From positions 32,001 to 96,000 of IMG/VR virus record IMGVR_UViG_3300044266_000210: DNA of 64,000 nt. One strand, written 5' to 3'. Position 1 is the first letter of the stretch, and every line of letters begins with the position of its first letter. The notes under the pieces were generated by a model. The model was not told the DNA's origin. It did not search any database and was given only the letters and a program-made list of their open reading frames with translations. The position numbers and the translations under genes are program-made. This document shows, in pieces, positions 1,093 to 32,500 of the stretch. This DNA is from a virus. Lineage: Duplodnaviria; Caudoviricetes.

Positions 1093-1751
1093 CAGGCTTC
1101 GGCTCCTTCTTTTTTGGCCTTGGCCTTGGGAGGATCGATAGCATCTGCTTGTTTACGTAATGCTTGTGCCTCTTTAAAGAGCTTATCTGCTTTGCTACGA
1201 AGTTGAGTAGGACTTAGTGTTTCTGTTGACTCAACTGGTGCTTCGTAGTTGACAGAACCGGAAGTTGTACGACCTGGGTCGTCTGCAGGAATTACAGGAG
1301 TATCAAAATTTGTATCTAACTCTGCATTAACTTCTTTGCTAGTCTTTACATTATCTTTGATACTACCGTCTCTGACAGCAAGGTCGTCAACACTTACACC
1401 TCGTTGTTCTGCAATTAGCTGATTTAGTTCGCTTAGAACAACAGTTACATTTGGATTCCCAGTAGGAGTCATTAGAACCATACTGGTAGGAACTTTTTTC
1501 AACATTCCACGAGAATGAAGAGCGTTCAACATTGAACTTCCGTCCTGAAATCTGCGAACAGCTAGGACATCTGCCAGTTCATTTGCTTCTTGGCCGCTAG
1601 GGTCTTGGATGACACTCATTAAAGAGTCGTGCCACGAATCTGGTAAACTGCCTGTGCCTATAACCAGAGCACTACCAGAATCACCTGGCAATGTTCTGTA
1701 GGCTACGGCGACTTTAGCACCGTTGTTTTTCATTTTGCCTACATGCTTCAT
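1092..1751 (-). CDS. Hypothetical phage protein
   Basis: 219-aa ORF, GGAAA upstream, coupled to the next gene. Confidence 0.75.
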   Translation of the reverse strand: MKHVGKMKNNGAKVAVAYRTLPGDSGSALVIGTGSLPDSWHDSLMSVIQDPSGQEANELADVLAVRRFQDGSSMLNALHSRGMLKKVPTSMVLMTPTGNPNVTVVLSELNQLIAEQRGVSVDDLAVRDGSIKDNVKTSKEVNAELDTNFDTPVIPADDPGRTTSGSVNYEAPVESTETLSPTQLRSKADKLFKEAQALRKQADAIDPPKAKAKKEGAEA

Positions 1752-20891: not shown

Positions 20892-21386
20892 TTATTTTTT
20901 GTTCAGAAATGTTGCGGCAAATCTTTTACAGATGTCTTTAAGTTTACCAGTTTGTGTTTCTTCTAGGCTAAACTTTACCTTCTCGTTGTCCTGTGTTGGA
21001 TCTATATACCCACAATAGACTTTGCGACATTTTGAATTGTTTACCAAATCGGTACAACTTTCTCCATAGCGTTCGTCCATATCCTCGTTGCAAGGACTTA
21101 GTGTGGTAATAATAATACTACCCTGTGGTATTGGACCGTAGTGTTCTTCATAACGATCCATAGCAACTCTTTCTGCGTGGCGTCTAGTTCCGTCCCCGGC
21201 CGCCTCGTTTACACCGAAGACTTTGCGGTTTTTGGGGTCTAAGACACAGGCCGCAACCATTCCGTATTTTTCTGAATCAATATTCTGACCCTTTATTACA
21301 TGGTAGCAGAGTTCAGCCAGAATCTTGTCCAGCTTAGGACGATTGTGAATTTCATAATCACTTTCATCAAACTCTCTTAGTCTCAT
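20892..21386 (-). CDS. Zn-dependent cytidine-deaminase-fold protein (RibD-like spacing)
   Basis: HAE, TTLSPC-x11-C, VYCGYIDP. Confidence 0.8.
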   Translation of the reverse strand: MRLREFDESDYEIHNRPKLDKILAELCYHVIKGQNIDSEKYGMVAACVLDPKNRKVFGVNEAAGDGTRRHAERVAMDRYEEHYGPIPQGSIIITTLSPCNEDMDERYGESCTDLVNNSKCRKVYCGYIDPTQDNEKVKFSLEETQTGKLKDICKRFAATFLNKK

Positions 21387-23341
21387 TTTTTCTTGCTTGG
21401 TTCGTTGGCAGCATAATGTGCCGCTACAGCCATTTGTGCTTTCTTTTGTGGTGTTTTATTTTTAAACTGATGGTATTTGTTTGGATCGGCTTTTTGAAAA
21501 TCCTGTACCCATACATCTACATCAGCTTGTGGATTTAATTTTTCTGATACTTGTTGTGCCACACTTAGTACATAAGCATCTTCGTGGCAGTTCCATTTAC
21601 GCAGAGCCAATGCCTTGCGTGTAGGTTTGCCGTTAGGCTTCTTCATTGGACCCTTTACACCTGACATACGAGCACAGAAAGATTTGCGGCGTTTAGCGGC
21701 CTTACTACCTTTCTTTAACTTGCTAGGCTTGGTAGTAACTGCTGTTTGTAGTTTGCTACCAGGATGACTACGACGATAACTAGCTACACCCTTCTTATTC
21801 AACCCGCCTGATTTGCTCTTGCCTTTACTTGTTTGCCATGCTTCGGCTTCTGCTAGTAATTCTTGATCGTCGATATTTTCAACATCTTCCCAGACTTGAT
21901 CAACATCTACACCGTTCTGAGCGGCAATGTCTTCAATCATAGATTCGATAATATCAAATTTCTGATTAAGTTCGGCATCTTCGCTTAGACCTTTTTTCTT
22001 CTTAGCGATAGCAATAGCGGCCTGTTGTGCAGGATTAGCTGCCTCGGTAGCTTCAATGTCTTCTTTAGGCACACAGTTATTAACTCTAACACCGCCCTTC
22101 ATTTTAGTACCCTGCTTTTTATAGCCTTTCCAGCAACTAGGATCTAGTCGTTGTTTTTCTTCGTTAAGTACTGTTTCTAAATGGCTCATGAATTCATCTT
22201 CCATGACTCCGCGGCCGTGATGTGTTCCTGAGTATGTATCGTAGGATCCTTTACCCCAACCACCTACTGTACTATGATCTTCGCTGACCTGTTTGATTGC
22301 TTGGATAGCTGGTTTAACTTGATCTTGTTTTAATTTAACAGGAAATTCTTTTCCTGCATAATTAAAACTATCTTCGCCTCTACTGGCCGCTACAGCGTGA
22401 GCCTTAGCAAATTGTTCTGCCTTATCTTGACCGCCAAGTTTTCTAGCGGCTAAATCCCATAGCTTGTCTACTGCCCACATACCACCTTTAGCACTATTAT
22501 AAGCACCGTAGGCTGCAAGAGCAGTTCCGATAACAGGACCCAACAGCCCGACAATAGCAGGAGCACCGGCAGCACCAAGTGCGCCTAATGCCAGACCGCC
22601 TGCTGCTTTTGCTAGGAAAGGTGCATCTTCGTCGACTTCTTCTGCACGAGCAATTGTTTGCTTTAGACTATGAATACGACTTTGAATATCTTTTTGTTGA
22701 CGCCAGAAGCTATGATCATCACTGTATTCAAAGTTAGGATCAAACTGTCCCTGTAATTTTTCTAATTCAGCCTTCATCTGTGGAAGGTTTGCTTTATCAC
22801 GAGCTAGACTATCTGCACGGTTTTTTTCGTCCGATGCTGCCCTTATTTTATCATATCGTGCCTGTGCGCGACCGATCCCTGCATCTCTTCTACGAGCAAT
22901 ATCTAGTTCTTTTTCTCGACTTGCTGGATCATTGCCAAACGCCGCGCCCATTTTTGCCAGAGCTGATGCCATTTTAGCCTTGCGCTGATAATCCCCTAGA
23001 CTAACTTCATCTAGTTTTGCTTTTAATACTTCAATGCGTGTTGCAATATCTTCCATGTAAGGTTTCTTGTGTTTTTCCTTACCTTGTTTTTGTTCTTTTT
23101 TCTTGTCTCGATGGGCGCCTGCACCTGTCTGAGTTTTTAACGCACCTTGTCTAGGCTTTTGTTTAACTGGAACAGTAACACTATCGCCTTCTTGTGTAAT
23201 TAGCCCGCCTCGTTTAATAACATTGCCCATAGGCTTTGATATGCTAGCTACAGCACCTGCACTAGTACCGCCGCCTGTTGCACTTTCCAAAGTATAGACA
23301 GTGGCATCTTTATATTGTTTTACTTTAAATTCGTGTTTCAT
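21383..23341 (-). CDS. Modular probable internal head polyprotein (includes a DUF6321-like module)
   Basis: Short modules separated by hydrophobic-x-E sites; modules CWKGYK...NNCVP and AWQ...GGLN...RRKSFCARM...WNC. Confidence 0.65.
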   Translation of the reverse strand: MKHEFKVKQYKDATVYTLESATGGGTSAGAVASISKPMGNVIKRGGLITQEGDSVTVPVKQKPRQGALKTQTGAGAHRDKKKEQKQGKEKHKKPYMEDIATRIEVLKAKLDEVSLGDYQRKAKMASALAKMGAAFGNDPASREKELDIARRRDAGIGRAQARYDKIRAASDEKNRADSLARDKANLPQMKAELEKLQGQFDPNFEYSDDHSFWRQQKDIQSRIHSLKQTIARAEEVDEDAPFLAKAAGGLALGALGAAGAPAIVGLLGPVIGTALAAYGAYNSAKGGMWAVDKLWDLAARKLGGQDKAEQFAKAHAVAASRGEDSFNYAGKEFPVKLKQDQVKPAIQAIKQVSEDHSTVGGWGKGSYDTYSGTHHGRGVMEDEFMSHLETVLNEEKQRLDPSCWKGYKKQGTKMKGGVRVNNCVPKEDIEATEAANPAQQAAIAIAKKKKGLSEDAELNQKFDIIESMIEDIAAQNGVDVDQVWEDVENIDDQELLAEAEAWQTSKGKSKSGGLNKKGVASYRRSHPGSKLQTAVTTKPSKLKKGSKAAKRRKSFCARMSGVKGPMKKPNGKPTRKALALRKWNCHEDAYVLSVAQQVSEKLNPQADVDVWVQDFQKADPNKYHQFKNKTPQKKAQMAVAAHYAANEPSKKK

Positions 23342-23706
23342 TTTTTACTCATCCAATTACTGGTAGGGCTTACCTTGTGTGTATCTTCGGGTTCTGCACT
23401 TTTAGACCATGGAGTTACCTGTTTGCTGTCTGTAGGAACAGTTGCTTCGGCCTGGCGGAACATATTATATTCTTCTTCTGTGTAGGGATGCTGTGTGTTA
23501 TACTTTTCTACCCAACTTGCTTCATCCATATCAACTGGTTTTTTACTCTTACCGTCGGCCATAGCAGTGGCCATCCATAAACGATTCATGTGATAAGTTC
23601 TATCGTAGCCACCATCGTCACGAGAAACATAAACACCTTGCTGTACCGCGGCATGGCGCTTCTTCATTTTTCCCTTTCGCTCTACAATAAAATCTCTTGC
23701 TCTCAT
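23338..23706 (-). CDS. Hypothetical, probable internal head protein
   Basis: N-terminus MRARDFIVE resembles a capsid-targeting sequence. Confidence 0.6.
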   Translation of the reverse strand: MRARDFIVERKGKMKKRHAAVQQGVYVSRDDGGYDRTYHMNRLWMATAMADGKSKKPVDMDEASWVEKYNTQHPYTEEEYNMFRQAEATVPTDSKQVTPWSKSAEPEDTHKVSPTSNWMSKK

Positions 23707-24149
23707 TGCGGGCCGCCCTTGCTACTTGCTCGTAACATCCATCCGTGCTTTTCGTGTGCGTCCATACGCTCTGCCAGGAAGTTGCTGAATCCGTGCTTGC
23801 CTTCTGCTTCGGCAGCATCGTATGTTTTCTTTAGGATCATGATCATCCGTTCATTGTCAATTAATAATTCTCGTACCATCGCTTCTAGAGGAATGATTTC
23901 AGTTTCATCTTTAACTTGAGTAAGCATACTGAAGCGAGCTAGGCTTGCTGGAGTGTAGGTCTTTAATTTGCGAATATTTTCGGCAAAATCGTCAACAACT
24001 CCATACACTTCGTCGTAAATCTTTTCAAAAAGTGCGTGATATTCAAAGAAATCGCTTCCTTCGACGTTCCAATGAAAGTTCTGCGCCTTTAGTGCAAAAC
24101 TATAGGTGCTTGCAAATGCTATTTTGGCTAACTGTTGTAACTGATCCAT
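23703..24149 (-). CDS. dps: Dps / ferritin-like protein
   Basis: HWNVEG, HALFEKIY, DDFAENIR, EKHGWML. Confidence 0.92.
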   Translation of the reverse strand: MDQLQQLAKIAFASTYSFALKAQNFHWNVEGSDFFEYHALFEKIYDEVYGVVDDFAENIRKLKTYTPASLARFSMLTQVKDETEIIPLEAMVRELLIDNERMIMILKKTYDAAEAEGKHGFSNFLAERMDAHEKHGWMLRASSKGGPQ

Positions 24150-24155
24150 GATATG

Positions 24156-24419
24156 TTATTTATTATTTTTTCCAAACCAAAGTTTAAACCACTCTTCGGT
24201 TCCAGGACGTATTCCCTGTTCACGCTGTATTTGTCCTTTATTACTACCTACTACAGCAGGTTTTAACAGACTATTATATTGGGCCAGTGCCTCCATTGAT
24301 CCTAGTCCGCCCATCATGCTTGCAGGCATTAGGTTGTGTATAGGATCATCGGGTGCTAGATAGCAATCGTTATCCTCTTTAGGATTAAGATCTGCGCTGG
24401 TTATTTTGTATTGCTTCAT
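24156..24419 (-). CDS. Hypothetical protein
   Basis: 87 aa ending PGTEEWFKLWF. Confidence 0.65.
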   Translation of the reverse strand: MKQYKITSADLNPKEDNDCYLAPDDPIHNLMPASMMGGLGSMEALAQYNSLLKPAVVGSNKGQIQREQGIRPGTEEWFKLWFGKNNK

Positions 24420-27400
24420 TCATTATAATCTTATCAATAAGAGAGGCAAAAATACGATCTAGATCTTCGTTAACACTTTCAGCAGCCCCGCCTACTAAGT
24501 CGCCTGCTCTTGCTGGGCGATTCTTACTTGGTCCAGTATTTTTCCACTGCCCTGCTGGTCCTAATTTGTTTCTGTCACTGCCAGCAAACGTACTCTTAGG
24601 CAACATAGCTTCATTCTTCTTAGCAATGTCTCTACCTTTTAGATGTTCTTCGCGGCGTTTATCGCCAGCGGCACGTAGTTTAGCTGTAGCACCATCCTTG
24701 GGATCTGTTAAGCGTTTAGCTGTTTGTGCCATTGCTTTACTTTCACCTTCCGCCACACCTTCGTTCTTTGGCATTAGGTGATAGTTTTTTCGTGCTTCGA
24801 TATCAACTAAGTCAGCATTTAGTTGACCCATTGTTAGTCCGTGTGGTCCGCGTCTTAAATCATCCATAACATCTGGATGTGCGTTTAACCACTTACGCAT
24901 ATCAGGAGTCATCTTACCAGCACGAATAGCATCAGCATAACTTGTTAGGAACTTGATGTATTCTTGTCTGTCAATCTCATTTCCTGCGGCACCGCCGCGG
25001 GCGCCTGCAACTGCTGGATAATAAGGACTTCCAGGATGGAATGGGTTACTTGCTACTTCAGAACCGTGACCACTTACACTTCCACCCTTACCGCCACTAC
25101 TTCCACCTTTACCACCACTAGCGTGTCCACCGCCTGAGCTAGCATGTCCACCACTTCCACCGTGTCCACCACCGCCTCCGCCACCTTTGGCCATAGCGTT
25201 GACACCTGTTGCTCCTAATGTGGCAGCACCCAGACCTTTTAAGAATCCTCTACGGTCTATACCTGCTTCCGCCACACCTTGCTCCACATCAACTATCTCA
25301 CCACGAGGAAAAGAATCTACAACTTTTTCTGCTGTAGTACGGGGCATGGGTTTTGTTTTGACCCATCTACCTGACTCCATTGTGTCCTGTTGCCAGTATT
25401 TAATCTGAACCAACTCTGCCAAGCCTTCCGCCACACCTTGCTGTTGTTTCTTCTCAGCATCCTTTTTAGCCTGTGCCATTACTTCTTCACCACGGCGACG
25501 ACTAGCATCACTCTTGGCACGCTCACGATCAAAGGCACGCTGTAGTTTAACGGCAGCACTCATTCGTGCTTCGTCTACGCTACTCTTTAAGTGACGGATA
25601 ACTGCACTTGCACTCTGCGTAACAGATGCCTGTGGATTCTTACGGCATACTTGTTGTATAACATTCATTAAGTACTCGTCACCGTATCGTGAGAATAGTT
25701 CAGGTTGCATCTCGTGTAAAAACTCTGCTACCTGTGCAGATTTATCTTCTTCGTATTCTTCCCAACCGTGATATTGCTTTTCATCTGTTTCGTTGATGTG
25801 TGTGCAGTTGCAAGGAGTTTGTCCACATACTGTACACATATCTTTGCCGCTTCTAATAAGAGCATTAAACAATCTTGTTTCAGATAGCGGTGCAGGTTGT
25901 GGTTCAACCTTAGGTGCCGGTTGTTTTGTAGGTTGTTGTGTGATGCCCATACCTTTTCTCGCAATATCCATTAAGTGTTTGATCCATGCCGGATCTAATT
26001 TTTGTGCTCCGTAGTTTCCGCTGTTGTATGCCGTATTCCACATAGCAAATTGTTGTTCGGGTGTCTTGTTAGGATCCTTTAAGACATTTCTTAGCTGTGT
26101 TCCGCTTACTCCAGTACCACCTTCTTCTGCGCCACGGCCGGTCACATTTGGTTCCACCTTGACATGTTCATAGCCGGCAAACTTGTTAACTGCCTTCATT
26201 AAAGCCTTACTCATACTATCGGCCATACTAGCACGATCGGTCCCTACAGTAATGATAATGTTATCATAGCGAGGTGCCTTACCCGGTAAAGGATTGATCA
26301 GTTCGTGTTTAATTTTTTGTATAAGTGTACCACCTTCGTGTGATACGGTGCTAATATTATCTGCATACTGTGGATACAGTTTACGCCATGTTTCTACTTT
26401 GACTGCGGGAGGAATAGGATCGTCTTTGCCTTCAGCAGTACCAATAAACATATATGGATCACCACCTACCTGTTTGGCTTTTTGTACAGCATAGTTGAAT
26501 AGCTGTTGATGCCCTACATGTCCGATAGCACTACCTATAGCAACAACTGCGGTCTTATTTGAATTAGCTCTTGGTTGTTCTGCACGAGCAGCCGCACGAG
26601 CTGCATTTTTTTGTGCTATAAGATCTTTTTGTTTTTCACTAGTTACCTTAACAGGTCCTAGTCGTGTGTTGATAACAATACCTTCGTAGTCCTGTCCTAA
26701 CTTATCTTTGCCAATAATATTTGGATCTTCATCAATTGCTTTTTCTAGAGCAATCTGTACAGGCTTTAATTTAGCTTCTACCTCTCTGCGTAGCTCTAGA
26801 CTTGCACGATCACGCTTGCCTGCTGTGTCACTAACAATACGCTTTAGTTCTTCTAAGTTTTCTAACGGATTGATAATTTCTGTAACATCTAGTCCTTCTT
26901 CTTGAACCAGTCTATTACTCATAAACATCACGCTTCCGCTCTGACCTAGATTAGCTAGTTGCTGAGCAGCCTCGTCGGGTAAATCATTACCTGTGCTTGC
27001 TTCTACAATACGATATGGTACTAGTACTAGTTCTACACCTTGTGGCAGTTGATCATATTCGATTCCAACAAACTTTAGTTTGCCTTCCTCAGTTTGTGTG
27101 GCAAATGGTAAAAATAATACTTCACAGGTTACCTGTTTGTCTACTAGAAATTCTGGTCCTAACTTGCTGTCAACAACCTTGATAGCCTTCATCATTTCGC
27201 CAAATAGCTTATCAAAATTTGCGGCACGCCCTAGAATCTCAGGATCAGTTGTACCTTTTTGTTTGTGATAGTCTACAAAGCCTGCTGAATATTTTGGTTC
27301 AGTGCGGCTGGTACCCATAAAAGGTTTACCGTCGCTGTTCTTACCAAAGCGGCCACCAAATCCGTCGATCTTGACATTTAGAGGAATATTCTGTAGTTTG

Positions 27401-28704
27401 AAACGACCGCCTTCTGATCTAAGTTCGTCTACCAAATCTAAAAAGTCTGCTGGCTTCAAATCACGAAGGTGTGGCATACCTTTGCGTAACTGTGCCTGTA
27501 CTTTAGGTTCTTCTGCTTCTTCAACAGGGCGATCTAATCCCACAGGTCCTTCTGAAGTTACTCTATAGTTCTTTACATAGTCTTGACGCATCTGTTCAAG
27601 ATTTTTTGGAGGAGTTATCTTTAAAGTTTTGAGTGCGTAGTTAAGTGCGGCATTCTTTTCGGCCATATCGCGCTGTGCATCACCTTTGTATAATCCTTGC
27701 GCTCCGGGAGCAAACAGTTTATCGACTAGCGCATCTAGTACCTGTTCTTTTTCTTCTGGTGTTAATACCAAATTCATGATCTCTAGTAGACCTGTAAAGC
27801 TCCAAGTCTTAGGAAGCAACTTTTTAAGTGCGCCAGTATCTATTCTTTTACCAAAGATAGTTTGAAATATAACGCCGAGGTCTTTCTCGTAACCGGCTGC
27901 AGGCAATGCTCGCATAACAGGTAACCCGTCATTTACTACCGGGCGTCCCTTTTCATCTGTAACGGGTTCATATTTTGCTCGCAGACCTCCACCTTCTTTA
28001 CTGCTGACAGCAAAACTGATCATATTATCTGTTGTAGGAACATCTTGTTCTGCACGAGCTTTACCGCGACCTACCATTTTGCGTAGTAAAAAGTCTTGTT
28101 TGGTTAATCTAGTAAACGCACCAATCAGATATTTGTGGAATACACCTTTAATACCTTGGCTTAGATCTTCCCAACTTGAACTGTGACTGAATCCTGCCCA
28201 GTCTGTAGGTTCATCTTTATCGTTGTAATCAACAAATTCAAAGTCAATCTGTACCTTTATTGGGGGATCGGTTAGTTCCCATAGACTGCTATATTGTTCA
28301 TTACCTCTGCTGTATCCTAAAAACTTAGCATTACCTACCACTTGTCCTTTTACACCATTCAACCACTGTGCTAGGTGAGGTTCGGAGTCTTTGTTAATCT
28401 GTGTATCTATGTCACCTACCTTAGGTTTGATACGCTCAAACTCATCGTCGGGTATGTCTGTATTGAAAAAATGTAGACTACTACCGCTTAGATACTTTCT
28501 ACTTTTAAGTACTTTTGGGCTCCATAGGTCATTGCCCTGGCTAGCCTTAAATCCTGCATTTATACTGTTTAATAATTGACTAAGGATAGGTACAATATAG
28601 GCACGATTGTGTACCTTAAGTTCTATCTGTTGTGCTTGGGCGCCATCTATCTCTAAATTACCGCCTTCTAAAAGTGTTCGCTTAAAAAATTCTCTTAAGA
28701 TCAT
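24385..28704 (-). CDS. Large multidomain protein: Pol-beta-type NTase + ligase-type (KxDG) NTase + HIGH-type nucleotidyltransferase + GVAE-delimited modules
   Basis: SGSS...GDID...QIDF; KIDG...EVLF...EGIVI...VKV; HVGH...VGTDR...SGTQLR; three GVAE sites. Confidence 0.75.
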   Translation of the reverse strand: MILREFFKRTLLEGGNLEIDGAQAQQIELKVHNRAYIVPILSQLLNSINAGFKASQGNDLWSPKVLKSRKYLSGSSLHFFNTDIPDDEFERIKPKVGDIDTQINKDSEPHLAQWLNGVKGQVVGNAKFLGYSRGNEQYSSLWELTDPPIKVQIDFEFVDYNDKDEPTDWAGFSHSSSWEDLSQGIKGVFHKYLIGAFTRLTKQDFLLRKMVGRGKARAEQDVPTTDNMISFAVSSKEGGGLRAKYEPVTDEKGRPVVNDGLPVMRALPAAGYEKDLGVIFQTIFGKRIDTGALKKLLPKTWSFTGLLEIMNLVLTPEEKEQVLDALVDKLFAPGAQGLYKGDAQRDMAEKNAALNYALKTLKITPPKNLEQMRQDYVKNYRVTSEGPVGLDRPVEEAEEPKVQAQLRKGMPHLRDLKPADFLDLVDELRSEGGRFKLQNIPLNVKIDGFGGRFGKNSDGKPFMGTSRTEPKYSAGFVDYHKQKGTTDPEILGRAANFDKLFGEMMKAIKVVDSKLGPEFLVDKQVTCEVLFLPFATQTEEGKLKFVGIEYDQLPQGVELVLVPYRIVEASTGNDLPDEAAQQLANLGQSGSVMFMSNRLVQEEGLDVTEIINPLENLEELKRIVSDTAGKRDRASLELRREVEAKLKPVQIALEKAIDEDPNIIGKDKLGQDYEGIVINTRLGPVKVTSEKQKDLIAQKNAARAAARAEQPRANSNKTAVVAIGSAIGHVGHQQLFNYAVQKAKQVGGDPYMFIGTAEGKDDPIPPAVKVETWRKLYPQYADNISTVSHEGGTLIQKIKHELINPLPGKAPRYDNIIITVGTDRASMADSMSKALMKAVNKFAGYEHVKVEPNVTGRGAEEGGTGVSGTQLRNVLKDPNKTPEQQFAMWNTAYNSGNYGAQKLDPAWIKHLMDIARKGMGITQQPTKQPAPKVEPQPAPLSETRLFNALIRSGKDMCTVCGQTPCNCTHINETDEKQYHGWEEYEEDKSAQVAEFLHEMQPELFSRYGDEYLMNVIQQVCRKNPQASVTQSASAVIRHLKSSVDEARMSAAVKLQRAFDRERAKSDASRRRGEEVMAQAKKDAEKKQQQGVAEGLAELVQIKYWQQDTMESGRWVKTKPMPRTTAEKVVDSFPRGEIVDVEQGVAEAGIDRRGFLKGLGAATLGATGVNAMAKGGGGGGGHGGSGGHASSGGGHASGGKGGSSGGKGGSVSGHGSEVASNPFHPGSPYYPAVAGARGGAAGNEIDRQEYIKFLTSYADAIRAGKMTPDMRKWLNAHPDVMDDLRRGPHGLTMGQLNADLVDIEARKNYHLMPKNEGVAEGESKAMAQTAKRLTDPKDGATAKLRAAGDKRREEHLKGRDIAKKNEAMLPKSTFAGSDRNKLGPAGQWKNTGPSKNRPARAGDLVGGAAESVNEDLDRIFASLIDKIIMNEAIQNNQRRS
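24747..25439 (-). repeat. Three exact in-frame 15-bp direct repeats AAGGTGTGGCGGAAG
   Basis: Plus-strand CTTCCGCCACACCTT at 24747-24761, 25266-25280 and 25425-25439; spacings 519 and 159 nt. Confidence 0.9.
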
Positions 28705-28705
28705 G

Positions 28706-29074
28706 TTACATTCCTATTTTATATTTGCCTTTGACAACATCTTCTTTGTAATGATCTAATAAGCGCTCACACATATCCTTTCTTAGTTCTTCGGAAAACA
28801 CTTTACCTAATTTTCCTTTTAATTTTTTATGTTCGTAGTATTCTTTGCAACCTTTTAGAACCATTGGCATGAATTCTTTAATTGCTTCGTCCTTACTATA
28901 ATTGCCTTTTTTAGAGGCTAACTTTCTAGCAATAGGAAAGAAATAATCTTTATGCAGTTTGTCGTGGTCAACGATGTACCAGAACAGATCGTCGCTGATG
29001 TTTTTATCATCGCGGCCCTTCTGAAGGTCTTTTACAGGGTCTAGGTTTTTGCCAAAGAATTCGTTAAGTAGCAT
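28706..29074 (-). CDS. Hypothetical, probable internal head protein
   Basis: Start MLLNEFF; TAAATA at 29115-29120. Confidence 0.65.
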   Translation of the reverse strand: MLLNEFFGKNLDPVKDLQKGRDDKNISDDLFWYIVDHDKLHKDYFFPIARKLASKKGNYSKDEAIKEFMPMVLKGCKEYYEHKKLKGKLGKVFSEELRKDMCERLLDHYKEDVVKGKYKIGM

Positions 29075-29143
29075 AATTGTTCCAAAAGTATACACAGATA
29101 CTCTAAGTATAGAGTATTTATTATATTTTATTCTTTTGGAAAA

Positions 29144-29560: not shown

Positions 29561-30258
29561 GTTGATTCCTCTGACTGGGTATTTATCAAAGATCTTGGAA
29601 CAAATTCTTCGATCTTTGATGCCCTGTCGCCTAAAAACAGCAACAACATGCTTAGAGTAGGGCCGTCTTCAACATATATACTTGGATTGGTTACCCATCG
29701 TTTTCTATTTGTTAACCAGTTTGCTACACTTACAGGAACACGCATTTTTCCGTTGTATTTGGCCATCCAAGACCAGAGGTTATCTTTGAGAGTTTGATTA
29801 ATGTTTTCTTTAATATGTAATTTGTACTGGTATTGTTTGAAGGGTAAATGATTGCAGAGCACTTTTTTATGTCCGTTGTCTAACATATATTGATACTCTG
29901 CATCATTAGCAGGCTCGTACACCGCTTGAATCCAGTTACTCATTTTTTTACATATTTGTTTGAACAGTTTGGTATCGTTGCAGTATATACTAAAGATACT
30001 GCCCTCAGTTCTTACAAATATATCTTTATCTAAAAATACATCAATATCTTTAATAAACTCTAATAGTTTAATAGGATCAAATTCTTGTTCTCTTCTAGCA
30101 AAGAATCCTGAGGCATGTATTTGTTTAGTCAAGCATTGTGCAACGGCATACTGAATACCGTTTCGTTTTATCATATAAGATCCTTTGCAATAGCATTTGA
30201 TCTTATATGAATATTTGTGGTAGAACAGCTTATGCGTTGTCAGTTTCTGGTAGCTCAT
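29548..30258 (-). CDS. Hypothetical protein
   Basis: ORF directly downstream of clpA; start uncertain. Confidence 0.65.
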   Translation of the reverse strand: MSYQKLTTHKLFYHKYSYKIKCYCKGSYMIKRNGIQYAVAQCLTKQIHASGFFARREQEFDPIKLLEFIKDIDVFLDKDIFVRTEGSIFSIYCNDTKLFKQICKKMSNWIQAVYEPANDAEYQYMLDNGHKKVLCNHLPFKQYQYKLHIKENINQTLKDNLWSWMAKYNGKMRVPVSVANWLTNRKRWVTNPSIYVEDGPTLSMLLLFLGDRASKIEEFVPRSLINTQSEESTCPV

Positions 30259-32500
30259 CTTTGGCCTTTTCAATAGGCATTATGTCTATAACGTTGATTT
30301 TTAGCTCACTGTTTTCAACTATAATTTCAACAACCCCGCCATTTACTAACTTACCAAAAAGTATTTCTTTGCTTAAAGGTCGTTTAATATAGTCATCGAT
30401 ACAGCGTTGTAGAGGACGAGCACCCATTTTGCTATTAAATCCTTTGGTAATCAGCCACTCAACTGCTTCCGATGTAGGCTTAACATGAATATTTTTATCT
30501 TTAATTTGAGCATTAAGTTCATCAATGAACTTCTTAACAACTCGAATCATGGTCTGTTGATCTAGCTTACCAAACTTAATAACACCATCTAAACGATTTC
30601 GGAATTCGGGTGCAAAGAATCGGTTAACAGCATCTTTCGGATCGCTATCTCGCTCTAAACTACCAAAGCCTACACTATTCTTTTCAGCATCAGCGGCACC
30701 TAGGTTACTAGTCATAATAAGAATAGCATTTCTTGCATCTGCTTTCTTGCCATTACTACCTGTAACAAACCCGTTATCCATTACCTGTAGCAGAACTGTA
30801 AGAACACTAGGGTGTGCTTTTTCAACTTCGTCTAACAACAGTACACAGTTAGGTGTTTCTTGTAGGCTTGTGATTAACAATCCTGCATTGTCTTCGTAGC
30901 CTACATAACCCGGAGGAGCACCGATGAACTTGGCTACACTGTGTTGTTCTTGATATTCACTCATATCAAAGCGCACTAGTTTAATACCAAGATTTTGTGC
31001 CAACTGTTTAGCAGCCTCAGTCTTACCCACACCGGTTGGTCCTACAAATAAGAAGTTACCGATAGGACGGGTAGGTGATTTCAATCCTGCCTGTGCGATA
31101 AAGACCTTATCTAGTAGGCTTTCGATAGCTTGTTCCTGCCCAAAGACCTTAGACTTCATATTCTTTTCTAGGTTAGGTAAGTTGCTGGTCTCTTTACTGT
31201 TAATACTTTCAATAGGAATATTAGCAATACGACTAATTTCAAACAAGATTTCATCATGGTCAACAATACCGCCCTCTTCGTCTCGTAGTTTGAAACGAGC
31301 ACTAGCACAGTCAATTAGGTCAATAGCCTTATCTGGTAGTTTCTTATCGCTAAGATACTTAACGCTATATTTCACGCTGTCAATGACAGCCTGGTTAGTA
31401 ATCTTAACACCGTGATGTTTTTCGTAATACTTCTTAAGACCTTTGATAATCTTAACAGCAGTTGCCTCATCTGGCTCATCAATTACTACACGTTGGAATC
31501 GACGCATCAGAGCACGATCCTTTTCAAAGTGCTTACGGTATTCTTCCCATGTAGTACTGGCGATAACTTTAATTGTACCCTTACCTAATGTGCTTTTAAG
31601 CATATTGGCCATATCATTACTGTTATTACCTGCGGCACCAGCACCATTCATCATGTGTGCTTCGTCAATGAATAGGATACACTTACCTTTCTTTTCGAGA
31701 CCATGAATAACAGCCTTGAGTCGTTCTTCAAAGTCTCCACGGTATTTGCTGCCAGCTAGCATGGCGCTGATGTCCAGGCTATAGACAGTATGATCCTGCA
31801 CAAACTTAGGAACATTACCTTCGTAGATTTTACGAGCAAGTCCTTCTGCAATAGCAGTCTTACCTACACCTGGATCGCCTATCATAATAGCATTGGACTT
31901 AGTGCGGCGTGCTAACACCAGTTGAATTTCTTCAATTTCTTTTTCACGACCAATGACAGGATCAATTTTCTTACTCTTGGCTCTTGCACTAAGGTTTAGG
32001 CAAAATTGACTGATAAATTTTTCAAGTTGAGGATTTATTCCTTTGCCTTCATCTTCTTCGCCTTCTTGTACAACTTCTTTTTTAACAAAATTAATAAAGT
32101 TGTCCTTATCGATATTGGCCTTACGCATGAGATAGTTTGCGTGGCTTTTCTTTTCACCAAACATACTAATAAAACAATCTATTGGGCTAATAATTTGTCG
32201 GCCACTAAACAGTACTTGTGTAAAAGCACGATTCAACATACGGTCAACGCTAACCGTTTTCTTTGGCTTGCCAACTGTTTCGCTAACAATATCTTTCAGC
32301 TCGTTGCTGATAAAATTTTCAAGATCTTCTCTGAAAGTTTTAACATCTGCACCAAATGCTTCTAAAATTTTTGCAAACGATTCATGACTTACCATGCTAT
32401 ACAAAAAGTGCTCGAGTGTTACGTATTCGTGTTTGTTAACACTGGCAACTTGAACAGCATGTTCAAAAATCTTCTCTAGATCCTTATCGGGTTCCAACAT
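30230..32500 (-). CDS. clpA: ATP-dependent Clp protease ATPase subunit
   Basis: Clp N-domain, GDPGVGKT, GPTGVGKTE, DKAIDLID, VGF ClpP-docking loop; no long M-domain. Confidence 0.93.
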   Translation of the reverse strand: MLEPDKDLEKIFEHAVQVASVNKHEYVTLEHFLYSMVSHESFAKILEAFGADVKTFREDLENFISNELKDIVSETVGKPKKTVSVDRMLNRAFTQVLFSGRQIISPIDCFISMFGEKKSHANYLMRKANIDKDNFINFVKKEVVQEGEEDEGKGINPQLEKFISQFCLNLSARAKSKKIDPVIGREKEIEEIQLVLARRTKSNAIMIGDPGVGKTAIAEGLARKIYEGNVPKFVQDHTVYSLDISAMLAGSKYRGDFEERLKAVIHGLEKKGKCILFIDEAHMMNGAGAAGNNSNDMANMLKSTLGKGTIKVIASTTWEEYRKHFEKDRALMRRFQRVVIDEPDEATAVKIIKGLKKYYEKHHGVKITNQAVIDSVKYSVKYLSDKKLPDKAIDLIDCASARFKLRDEEGGIVDHDEILFEISRIANIPIESINSKETSNLPNLEKNMKSKVFGQEQAIESLLDKVFIAQAGLKSPTRPIGNFLFVGPTGVGKTEAAKQLAQNLGIKLVRFDMSEYQEQHSVAKFIGAPPGYVGYEDNAGLLITSLQETPNCVLLLDEVEKAHPSVLTVLLQVMDNGFVTGSNGKKADARNAILIMTSNLGAADAEKNSVGFGSLERDSDPKDAVNRFFAPEFRNRLDGVIKFGKLDQQTMIRVVKKFIDELNAQIKDKNIHVKPTSEAVEWLITKGFNSKMGARPLQRCIDDYIKRPLSKEILFGKLVNGGVVEIIVENSELKINVIDIMPIEKAKDELPETDNA

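Follow-up and report, generated by a model that had tools for sequence, protein, structure and literature searches.

[quoted passage not shown] The T4 protease gp21 cuts after Glu, and in the 10-aa T4 capsid-targeting sequence (CTS; MKTYQEFIAE) the determinants of processing lie at residues 8 and 10. We know of no T4 internal protein that is re-exported. Addresses read in two steps are familiar from the bipartite transit peptides of the thylakoid lumen (chloroplast Tat/delta-pH pathway), where a processing peptidase removes the first targeting part and so exposes the Tat signal used at the second membrane. Bacterial Tat signals, as modelled in PF10518 and TIGR01409, combine a twin-arginine motif and F-L-K with a moderately hydrophobic, Gly/Ala-rich h-region and an A-x-A signal-peptidase site.

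T4-type prohead proteases, which are active within the prohead, are known by a cleavage signature of Glu at P1 and an aliphatic residue at P3 (PMC9026906). In the giant phages phiKZ, 201phi2-1 and SPN3US, head-internal ejection (inner-body) proteins are cut by the prohead protease at several x-E sites, of the form S/A-x-E, and reach the cell together with the DNA (PMC5694885, PMC9026906); these phages belong to a different lineage from the one studied here, and no export signals have been reported on their fragments. In the literature that we searched, no paper connects twin-arginine signals to prohead proteases, to ejection proteins or to jumbo phages.

The DNA analysed here, a stretch of 64,000 nucleotides called the window below, is part of a 131.5-kb contig from an uncultured jumbo phage of the T4 superfamily, with a DNA polymerase of the Rak2/Atu_ph07-like type; the contig is a fragment, about 37% complete according to CheckV. 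It encodes a modular polyprotein with the following features (positions are those of the window; a slash in a motif marks the position after the Glu or, in AMA/K, the signal-peptidase site):

24385..28704, minus strand: whole ORF, 1439 aa plus stop, composed of a leader, fused enzyme domains (about 1080 aa) and a cassette tail
28666..28704, minus strand: N-terminal leader M1-E13, ending L-L-E before GGN and resembling the T4 capsid-targeting sequence
25426..25437, minus strand: first GVAE junction, aa 1090-1093
25267..25278, minus strand: second GVAE junction, aa 1143-1146, the putative site at which cleavage would uncover the signal
25189..25266, minus strand: Tat-type signal peptide A1147-A1172, with n-region AGID, RRGFLK, a 16-aa h-region and c-region A-M-A
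24985..25188, minus strand: Gly/His/Ser-rich linker, K1173 to about G1240, predicted to be disordered
24787..24984, minus strand: small four-helix cargo domain of unknown function, aa ~1241-1306, AF2 pLDDT 75-84
24748..24759, minus strand: third GVAE junction, aa 1316-1319, end of the Tat cassette
24388..24747, minus strand: C-terminal fragment, aa 1320-1439, with a GGAAE/S junction and a conserved terminal helix

The enzyme part has PHROG matches at aa 42-371, 415-567 and 713-879, the last of these a cytidyltransferase; apart from this cytidyltransferase-type domain, only two PHROGs without assigned function are recognised there. Four separate, adjacent genes of Xanthomonas phage BUDD correspond to the enzyme domains fused in the 1439-aa ORF. 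Cultured relatives, which are phages of Xanthomonas, Vibrio, Campylobacter and Stenotrophomonas, share only the N-terminal enzyme domain (25-28% identity), the tail module has no match in any cultured phage (50,697 records), and there is no match to cultured phages at the DNA level. As a large multi-enzyme fusion the protein is reminiscent of the polyvalent proteins of phages and conjugative elements, which are believed to be injected together with the DNA in order to take over the host (Iyer et al. 2017, cited in PMC7824862); other sets of domains define that class, and its description there mentions neither a cassette tail with Glu junctions nor Tat signals.

As the first-pass annotation had pointed out, a twin-arginine signal directly follows the middle GVAE repeat, some 1150 aa into the protein. 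Read on the minus strand, aa 1143-1173 run GVAE/AGID-RRGFLK, 16 uncharged residues and AMA/K. The twin-arginine consensus is present as D-R-R-G-F-L-K at aa 1150-1156 (RRGFLK being R1151-K1156, positions 25237-25254), the uncharged h-region has a mean Kyte-Doolittle value of 0.96, and A1170-M-A1172 followed by K forms a -3/-1 small-residue site. Unlike ordinary bacterial Tat signals, it stands behind acidic junction residues and, with its twin arginine at residue 1151 of 1439, far from the start of translation, so that it would be N-terminal only after a cut at E1146. It also scores just under both cut-offs on the 1439-aa protein: 17.0 bits with Pfam TAT_signal (PF10518; cut-off 22.7) and 15.7 bits with TIGR01409 (cut-off 16.7). 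Several relatives pass these curated models at internal positions, with 23.6 bits for P0113 and 22.8-23.8 bits for P0143, P0146, P0148, P0153 and P0158 in the Pfam model and 20.4-22.1 bits in TIGR01409; P0034 and P0102 are also among those above the cut-offs.

Among 68 related metagenomic phage proteins the signal recurs, with its flanks, in 58 distinct contexts, which are not independent trials because they are kin by descent and were retrieved by similarity. The consensus RRGFL[KR]G is invariant across these contexts, 43/58 have an A-x-A site 8-24 aa further on, and the twin arginine lies beyond residue 20 in 52/58. The signal is portable, preceding 13 cargo clusters without mutual relation at BLAST 1e-4. 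The Tat HMM scores, the relatives above the cut-offs and this recurrence rule out a chance match, and the stretch is very probably a real Tat-type signal under selection. A captured bacterial Tat substrate is ruled out as well, since aa 1147-1319 matched only phage-type relatives in an exhaustive phmmer search of 1.84 billion representatives.

That search returned a handful of relatives, always internal: where the match includes the signal the module is internal in 5/5, and two partial matches cover the cargo end only. The annotated interval 24762-25266 covers A1147 to E1315, everything between the second and the third GVAE, and the Gly/His/Ser linker and small helical domain described there behind the signal are borne out by the AF2 model, in which a disordered stretch precedes a four-helix domain; mean pLDDT of the model is 54, with confidence only in the four-helix core. 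For the cargo fold, Foldseek against the PDB gave nothing at E<=0.001 and the ESM Atlas nothing at or above 0.9, and a PDB sequence search matched Gly linkers only. The same contig holds no paralogues of the Tat cassette or the tail elsewhere. The C-terminal fragment is the most widespread module of the family, common to about 108 of 119 relatives.

The positional association between such signals and x-x-E sites that the first-pass annotation had suggested surveying is found throughout: the last Glu lies 2-4 aa before the twin arginine in 58/58 related contexts. P3 of that Glu is L, I, V or M in 51 of them and G, A, S or T in 6, with P2 and P4-P5 variable. A junction by the strict definition precedes the signal in 5/11 cases against a background of 0.57%, and [LIVM]xE does so in 7/11 against 4.3%. 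The three GVAE copies of this genome are identical over 14 nt each, and the 14-mer occurs nowhere else in the 131.5-kb contig; this identity may reflect codon preference or recent duplication. Between genomes the QGVAE codons differ synonymously, so that the peptide rather than the DNA is what is conserved, and a function of the 14-nt repeat at the DNA level is ruled out. It seems probable that the signal is unmasked by cleavage at a Glu junction. Of the earlier proposal that proteolysis in the head creates a new N-terminus, the location stands up well, as a Glu-P1 junction immediately precedes the signal and a cut there would make the signal N-terminal; for the purposes proposed with it, the one pointer is a single related cargo with a Peptidase_M48 domain.

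The start of the polyprotein also recalls the T4 internal proteins. E/GGN occurs at residue 11-17 in 90/120 family proteins, always with L, I or V at P3, and leader-like N-termini are found in 81/120 family members against 4/144 ORFs of the genome. CP220 gp100 carries a leader; the stand-alone homologue of Xanthomonas phage BUDD lacks it and starts directly with MGGN. The likeness to the CTS is one of resemblance only, no CTS model existing to score against. In some relatives (P0168, P0135) a leader of 9-13 aa directly abuts the signal, giving a bipartite leader-plus-Tat presequence. A related contig of 206 kb, G001, encodes an orthologue of the 1439-aa protein together with a portal, a Peptidase_S77 prohead protease (92 bits) and a gp23-type capsid protein (269 bits); between its portal and protease genes lies one for an 82-aa protein with the same MILREF start. 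T4-type protease and capsid genes are thus present in a relative, and these genes, the leader and its absence from the BUDD homologue indirectly support packaging of the polyprotein in the head. It differs from the T4 proteins in lacking sequence homology to them, in its many internal junctions, which make it a cassette polyprotein, in that its packaging is deduced from sequence, and in that some of its fragments would begin with an export signal.

We infer a course of packaging, cleavage, ejection and export as follows. The CTS-like leader would take the polyprotein into the prohead core, where a T4-type prohead protease cutting after Glu would remove the leader and cut the GVAE-type junctions. 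The products would be the enzyme (about 1080 aa), a peptide of 53 aa, a fragment of 173 aa and a basic tail of 120 aa. The new N-terminus of the 173-aa fragment would lie 4 residues before RRGFLK. Packaged like Alt and the internal proteins, the fragments would be delivered with the DNA to the next host, where the 173-aa fragment would be recognised by TatBC and moved to the periplasm, and signal peptidase I would trim it after A-M-A to leave the Gly/His-rich linker and the small helical domain there. Export by a signal that proteolysis first brings to light has to be post-translational, which is how the Tat pathway works; burial of the signal would also block export from the producing cell before packaging. 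The fragment might serve in jamming Tat, in superinfection exclusion or in envelope remodelling, as the first-pass annotation proposed. The scheme parallels the thylakoid peptides in its two-step address unmasking a Tat signal; those belong to a eukaryotic organelle, with a short presequence and no virus or capsid, whereas here a 1146-aa enzyme part comes first. Taken whole, a packaged Alt/IP-like polyprotein cut at Glu junctions and exported by Tat in the next host is our best explanation, held with a confidence slightly short of even; its central step, cutting inside the capsid with subsequent delivery by ejection, is a finely balanced proposition that we also place a shade on the doubtful side.

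Export could instead take place in the producing cell, during the same infection and with no capsid step, if the cassette were freed by another cytoplasmic protease or if short free-standing forms were used directly, the product acting for instance in periplasmic exclusion, in lysis timing or as an envelope factor. Four free-standing small relatives (P0135, P0154, P0144 and P0168) have the signal 13-16 residues from their start and, judging by this position, could be ordinary Tat precursors, exported directly without cleavage. The surroundings of the gene are of the replication or early type (DNA polymerase, a Dps-like protein, a Clp-like ATPase), which also agrees with a role in the producing cell, as does the finding that the 131.5-kb contig, about 37% of a genome, holds no prohead protease, capsid gene or other head genes. 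The T4 ip and alt genes likewise sit outside the head cluster. The T4 late promoter TATAAATA is uninformative here, as the window has 2 matches where 6 would be expected. What makes a purely cytoplasmic release unlikely is that the Glu-P1/aliphatic-P3 junctions carry the signature of T4-type prohead proteases, enzymes acting in proheads (PMC9026906), that the CTS-like leader of the family is also found on a head-module protein, and that the window offers no other protease candidate, the neighbouring 756-aa Clp-type ATPase having no peptidase domain match.

Alternatively, the stretch might not be a Tat signal at all but a membrane-insertion element, its Gly/Ala-rich hydrophobic residues, preceded by basic ones, anchoring the ejected fragment in the inner membrane or inserting it there, for example to aid DNA entry. 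Hydrophobic Gly/Ala-rich stretches without a twin arginine do follow other Glu junctions of the family (E/GWK[ED]K with about 16 uncharged residues, E/GK with 19), and the neighbouring 652-aa mosaic protein has a similar stretch of 40 aa after V-D-E. A plain anchor, however, requires neither a twin-arginine consensus, nor A-x-A, nor a fit to Tat models, and the invariance of the first across the 58 contexts, the frequency of the second and the relatives that pass the curated models render this quite improbable.

The Tat module is a cassette, to judge from orthologues that share the first junction and then continue with different cassettes. It is thus conceivable that a signal belonging to small phage proteins was shuffled in by recombination at GVAE junctions and that the internal copy is an inert passenger, never exposed. 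The exchange of whole cassettes among orthologues, the identical codons at the three GVAE sites of this genome and the rarity of the type-a cassette are all compatible with such a history. Against it, the 52 contexts with the twin arginine beyond residue 20 still keep consensus, h-region and A-x-A, the type-a relatives (45-78% identity) vary the sequence of the h-region and keep its character and the -3/-1 small-residue site (6/6), and type-a cargo is found at internal positions only. We regard an inert passenger as decidedly improbable.

Internal translation initiation, with the Shine-Dalgarno-like AGGTG within the QGV codons as ribosome-binding site and initiation at the codon for the aliphatic residue at -2 from the twin arginine giving a nested Tat precursor, is scarcely credible: residue -2 or -3 is indeed always M, I, L or V, but an internal start codon finds no support in the -2 codons of the 8 loci with DNA (ATA, ATC, TTA, ATA, ATA, TTA, GTC and ATT, with no ATG, GTG or TTG), and the spacing of AGGTG is 14 nt in the query and the junction codons drift synonymously between genomes.

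Returning to delivery of a packaged, cleaved fragment, we suggest tentatively, as a generalisation rather less than evenly probable, that T4-like jumbo phages address their cargo by a code of two steps: a capsid-targeting leader loads a polyprotein into the prohead, and the head protease then unmasks Tat (and Sec-like) signals on the fragments, so that ready-made effectors ejected with the DNA would be re-exported to the periplasm by the translocase of the new host before phage gene expression. The reading predicts Tat-dependent and RR-dependent export of the fragment and not of the uncut precursor. If it is true, phage-injected proteins are not limited to the cytoplasm, and pre-made proteins would reach the host periplasm moments after infection by way of the borrowed host Tat system, such payloads including a related M48-type peptidase cargo and many cargo domains of unknown function. 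Nature would then provide an instance of a bacterial export signal unmasked by proteolysis, on whose principle periplasmic payloads for delivery by phage could be designed, and a new way would be open to these phages to take over the host early or to exclude competing phages.

The elements that the first-pass annotation had read from the DNA (GVAE, RRxFLK, an h-region, an AxA site, a Gly/His/Ser linker and a helical domain) are confirmed in the translation of a single polyprotein ORF:

24385..28704, minus strand: ORF carrying the signal, 1439 aa
aa 1143-1146, minus strand: second GVAE (candidate cleavage junction), then A-G-I-D (translated sequence)
aa 1151-1156, minus strand: twin-arginine motif R-R-G-F-L-K (translated sequence)
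after R-R-G-F-L-K, minus strand: h-region, 16 uncharged residues, Gly/Ala/Thr-rich, mean Kyte-Doolittle 0.96
aa 1170-1172, minus strand: A-M-A, then Lys (translated sequence)
after A-M-A, minus strand: Gly/His/Ser-rich stretch of ~68 residues, disordered in AlphaFold2
aa ~1241-1306, minus strand: compact four-helix domain, AlphaFold2 pLDDT 75-84
aa 1316-1319, minus strand: third GVAE (translated sequence)

All three GVAE sites are encoded by an identical 14 nt, a repeat unique to these sites in the 131.5-kb viral contig.

The polyprotein scores narrowly under both curated cut-offs: 17.0 bits against Pfam TAT_signal (cut-off 22.7) and 15.7 bits against TIGR01409 (cut-off 16.7). For comparison, 68 metagenomic relatives carrying the motif were retrieved by similarity, giving 58 distinct sequence contexts which, being relatives, are non-independent samples. 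RRGFL[KR] is invariant in these contexts, and 43 of them have an A-x-A site 8-24 residues further on. Signals at internal positions exceed the Pfam cut-off in P0113, P0143, P0146, P0148, P0153 and P0158, and the TIGR01409 cut-off in P0034, P0102 and P0113. Among the six relatives with the query's cargo the h-region sequence drifts, while all six retain the -3/-1 small-residue site immediately ahead of K-G-G-G-G. What follows the signal falls into 13 clusters mutually unrelated at BLAST 1e-4, and a single signal ahead of many unrelated cargoes is the behaviour of a targeting signal. This comparative evidence, which we take to be decisive despite the sub-threshold scores of the query, makes it very likely that the cassette carries a real Tat-type signal under selection.

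Only a handful of sequences in 1.84 billion representatives are related to the query's own cargo type, and the module is internal in every relative whose match includes the signal. No fold match (Foldseek against PDB, E<=0.001) or family match (Pfam, TIGR and PHROG profile searches) was found for it. In the relatives P0151 and P0152 the order is leader, QGVAE, Tat signal, Peptidase_M48 domain and DUF6321; in E. coli, some members of the Peptidase_M48 family belong to the periplasm or the envelope. Another relative, P0165, has GNAT and ParB_N domains upstream of its internal Tat signal.

The association of RRxFL with preceding x-x-E sites, for which a survey of relatives had been proposed, holds throughout: a Glu stands 2-4 residues ahead of the first Arg in 58/58 contexts. 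Its P3 residue (two places before the Glu) is L/I/V/M in 51, G/A/S/T in six and another residue in one, with highly variable flanking positions (GVAE, PIAE, DVDE, SLEE, QLDE, FVTE and others). The strict junction motif occurs 2-4 residues upstream in 5 of the first 11 cases (background, 0.57% of positions) and [LIVM]xE in 7 of them (background, 4.3%), nominal P values being too strong because the compared proteins are related. The QGVAE codons vary synonymously among genomes (GTG/GTA, GCG/GCA, GAA/GAG, GGT/GGC); the conserved entity is therefore the peptide, as expected of a protease site. The R-R-G of the signal (25246-25254; loci L031 and L034-L039) is CGT AGA GGN in 7/8 loci from different samples and CGT AGG GGA in L039, which may reflect codon preference or recent cassette spread. 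Orthologues have in common the junction that precedes the cassette region and carry different cassettes beyond it, one going straight into the common C-terminal module. The Tat unit is therefore a cassette delimited by junctions.

Cleavage after Glu, with P3 aliphatic or small, is typical of the T4 prohead protease gp21 and its counterparts in phiKZ-like giant phages, which process proteins inside the head at a single site or at several (PMC9026906; PMC5694885). Four observations, all at the sequence level, tie the polyprotein family to what would be a T4-type head-protease system. First, a start of the form M-x(2,3)-[ED]-hydrophobic-hydrophobic is found in 81/120 large and 32/66 shorter relatives, against only 4/144 and 6/245 of the long ORFs of two genomes from the group, and E/GGN (slash, candidate cut) lies at residue 11-17 in 90/120 large relatives, P3 always being L, I or V. 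The query itself begins M-I-L-R-E-F-F-K-R-T-L-L-E/G-G-N, resembling the T4 capsid-targeting sequence (CTS) MKTYQEFIAE, whose processing determinants are residues 8 and 10 (PMC9026906). Second, the homologous enzyme of the Xanthomonas phage BUDD begins at M-G-G-N without any leader, whereas in CP220, a T4-like phage of Campylobacter, the homologue carries a leader that ends I-L-E/GGN; the leader is therefore an add-on. Third, G001, a related 206-kb contig with an orthologue, has a head module in T4 order (portal, 82-aa protein, acidic core protein, Peptidase_S77 at 92 bits, scaffold-like protein, gp23 at 269 bits), of which the 82-aa protein opens with M-I-L-R-E-F, as the polyprotein does. Fourth, in some short relatives a leader of 9-13 residues directly abuts the signal (e.g. 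M-R-A-T-E-F-V-T-E/D-M-S-RRGFLKG), making a bipartite presequence.

The signal could instead serve export in the producing cell, within one infection. Small free-standing genes with the signal 13-16 residues from the start, such as P0135 (174 aa, encoded by its own gene on a 25-kb contig), could serve directly as Tat precursors of the usual kind, but the window showed no other candidate protease, and we consider this role unlikely. It is more doubtful still that the stretch is a membrane element working without Tat: RR-less hydrophobic Gly/Ala stretches likewise come after Glu junctions, but such an element would need neither the invariant Tat consensus nor an A-x-A site. This RR-less class (E/GWK[ED]K plus ~16 uncharged Gly/Ala-rich residues, or E/GK plus 19) occurs in P0121, P0006, P0026, P0087, P0089, P0076, P0125 and P0078, and may represent Sec-type signals or anchors. 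Beside the portal region of G001 (L017 756-1463), a 235-aa protein has the leader MKINELLVE and then a Gly-rich, h-region-like hydrophobic stretch without RR. That the internal signal is an inert passenger is improbable, being hard to reconcile with conservation across 52 internal contexts. Internal translation initiation is highly improbable, as none of 8 loci has ATG, GTG or TTG two codons ahead of RR.

Three neighbours of the polyprotein have similar leaders:

20892-21386, minus strand: deaminase-like protein, leader MRLREFDE
23338-23706, minus strand: 122-aa protein, leader MRARDFIVE
28706-29095, minus strand: 129-aa ORF with internal MLLNEFF, possibly the real start

They suggest a gene cluster whose proteins carry leaders and may be packaged. 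Adjoining the polyprotein is another mosaic protein (652 aa; 21383-23341, minus strand), which has cassettes in common with the family (a Cys-containing module with RLDPSCWKGY, a DUF6321-like one and an AQQAAIAIAKKKK module), as well as a ~40-aa Gly/Ala-rich hydrophobic stretch straight after a V-D-E site. After the polyprotein, at 23703-24419 on the minus strand, come an ORF of 87 aa and a Dps/ferritin-like gene (phrog_3636), a synteny kept in two distant relatives (L035 and L039, PF00210 downstream of P0121 and P0034). The N-terminal ~880 aa of the polyprotein (25950-28665, minus strand) fuse domains encoded in BUDD by four adjacent separate genes (L018 4016-7365), the last an adenylyl/cytidylyltransferase, which suggests a single enzymatic pathway fused into one protein. 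Upstream in the same gene run (30230-32500, minus strand) lies a ClpA/ClpB-like protein of 756 aa, which has two AAA+ modules and scores 827 bits against the PHROG 'ATP-dependent protease'; no peptidase domain was seen in it. Outside the window, the same genome has a 3930-aa ORF (G000:C1:16403-28195, plus strand), with a 3953-aa counterpart in G001 (99491-111352).

The contig is an IMG/VR record whose completeness CheckV puts at 37%, corresponding to a genome of ~350 kb, and no head genes were found on its 131.5 kb. The DNA polymerase it encodes has its nearest counterparts in Sinorhizobium phage Phosso (51%), Agrobacterium phage Atu_ph07 (46%) and the CBB/GAP32/XbC2 group (43%), all T4-superfamily jumbo myoviruses infecting Proteobacteria. 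The tail module of the polyprotein is absent from cultured phages (50,697 records).

We infer packaging, cutting, ejection and export steps as follows. The leader would carry the polyprotein into the prohead, where the prohead protease would strip the leader and cut the junctions, releasing a 173-aa fragment with the new start A-G-I-D-R-R; short n-regions of this kind occur in some E. coli Tat substrates. The fragments would exit with the phage DNA, and the Tat system of the new host would export the 173-aa fragment, signal peptidase I trimming it after A1172. Tat would be favoured because a signal created by proteolysis can act only post-translationally, and because a precursor whose signal is buried cannot be diverted into export by the producing cell ahead of packaging. 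The components (CTS, Glu-specific head proteases, ejection proteins and Tat signals) are already known; no description of them combined was found in the literature searched. Functionally, the closest parallel is found in thylakoid-lumen proteins, in whose bipartite transit peptide a Tat signal is exposed by a processing peptidase.
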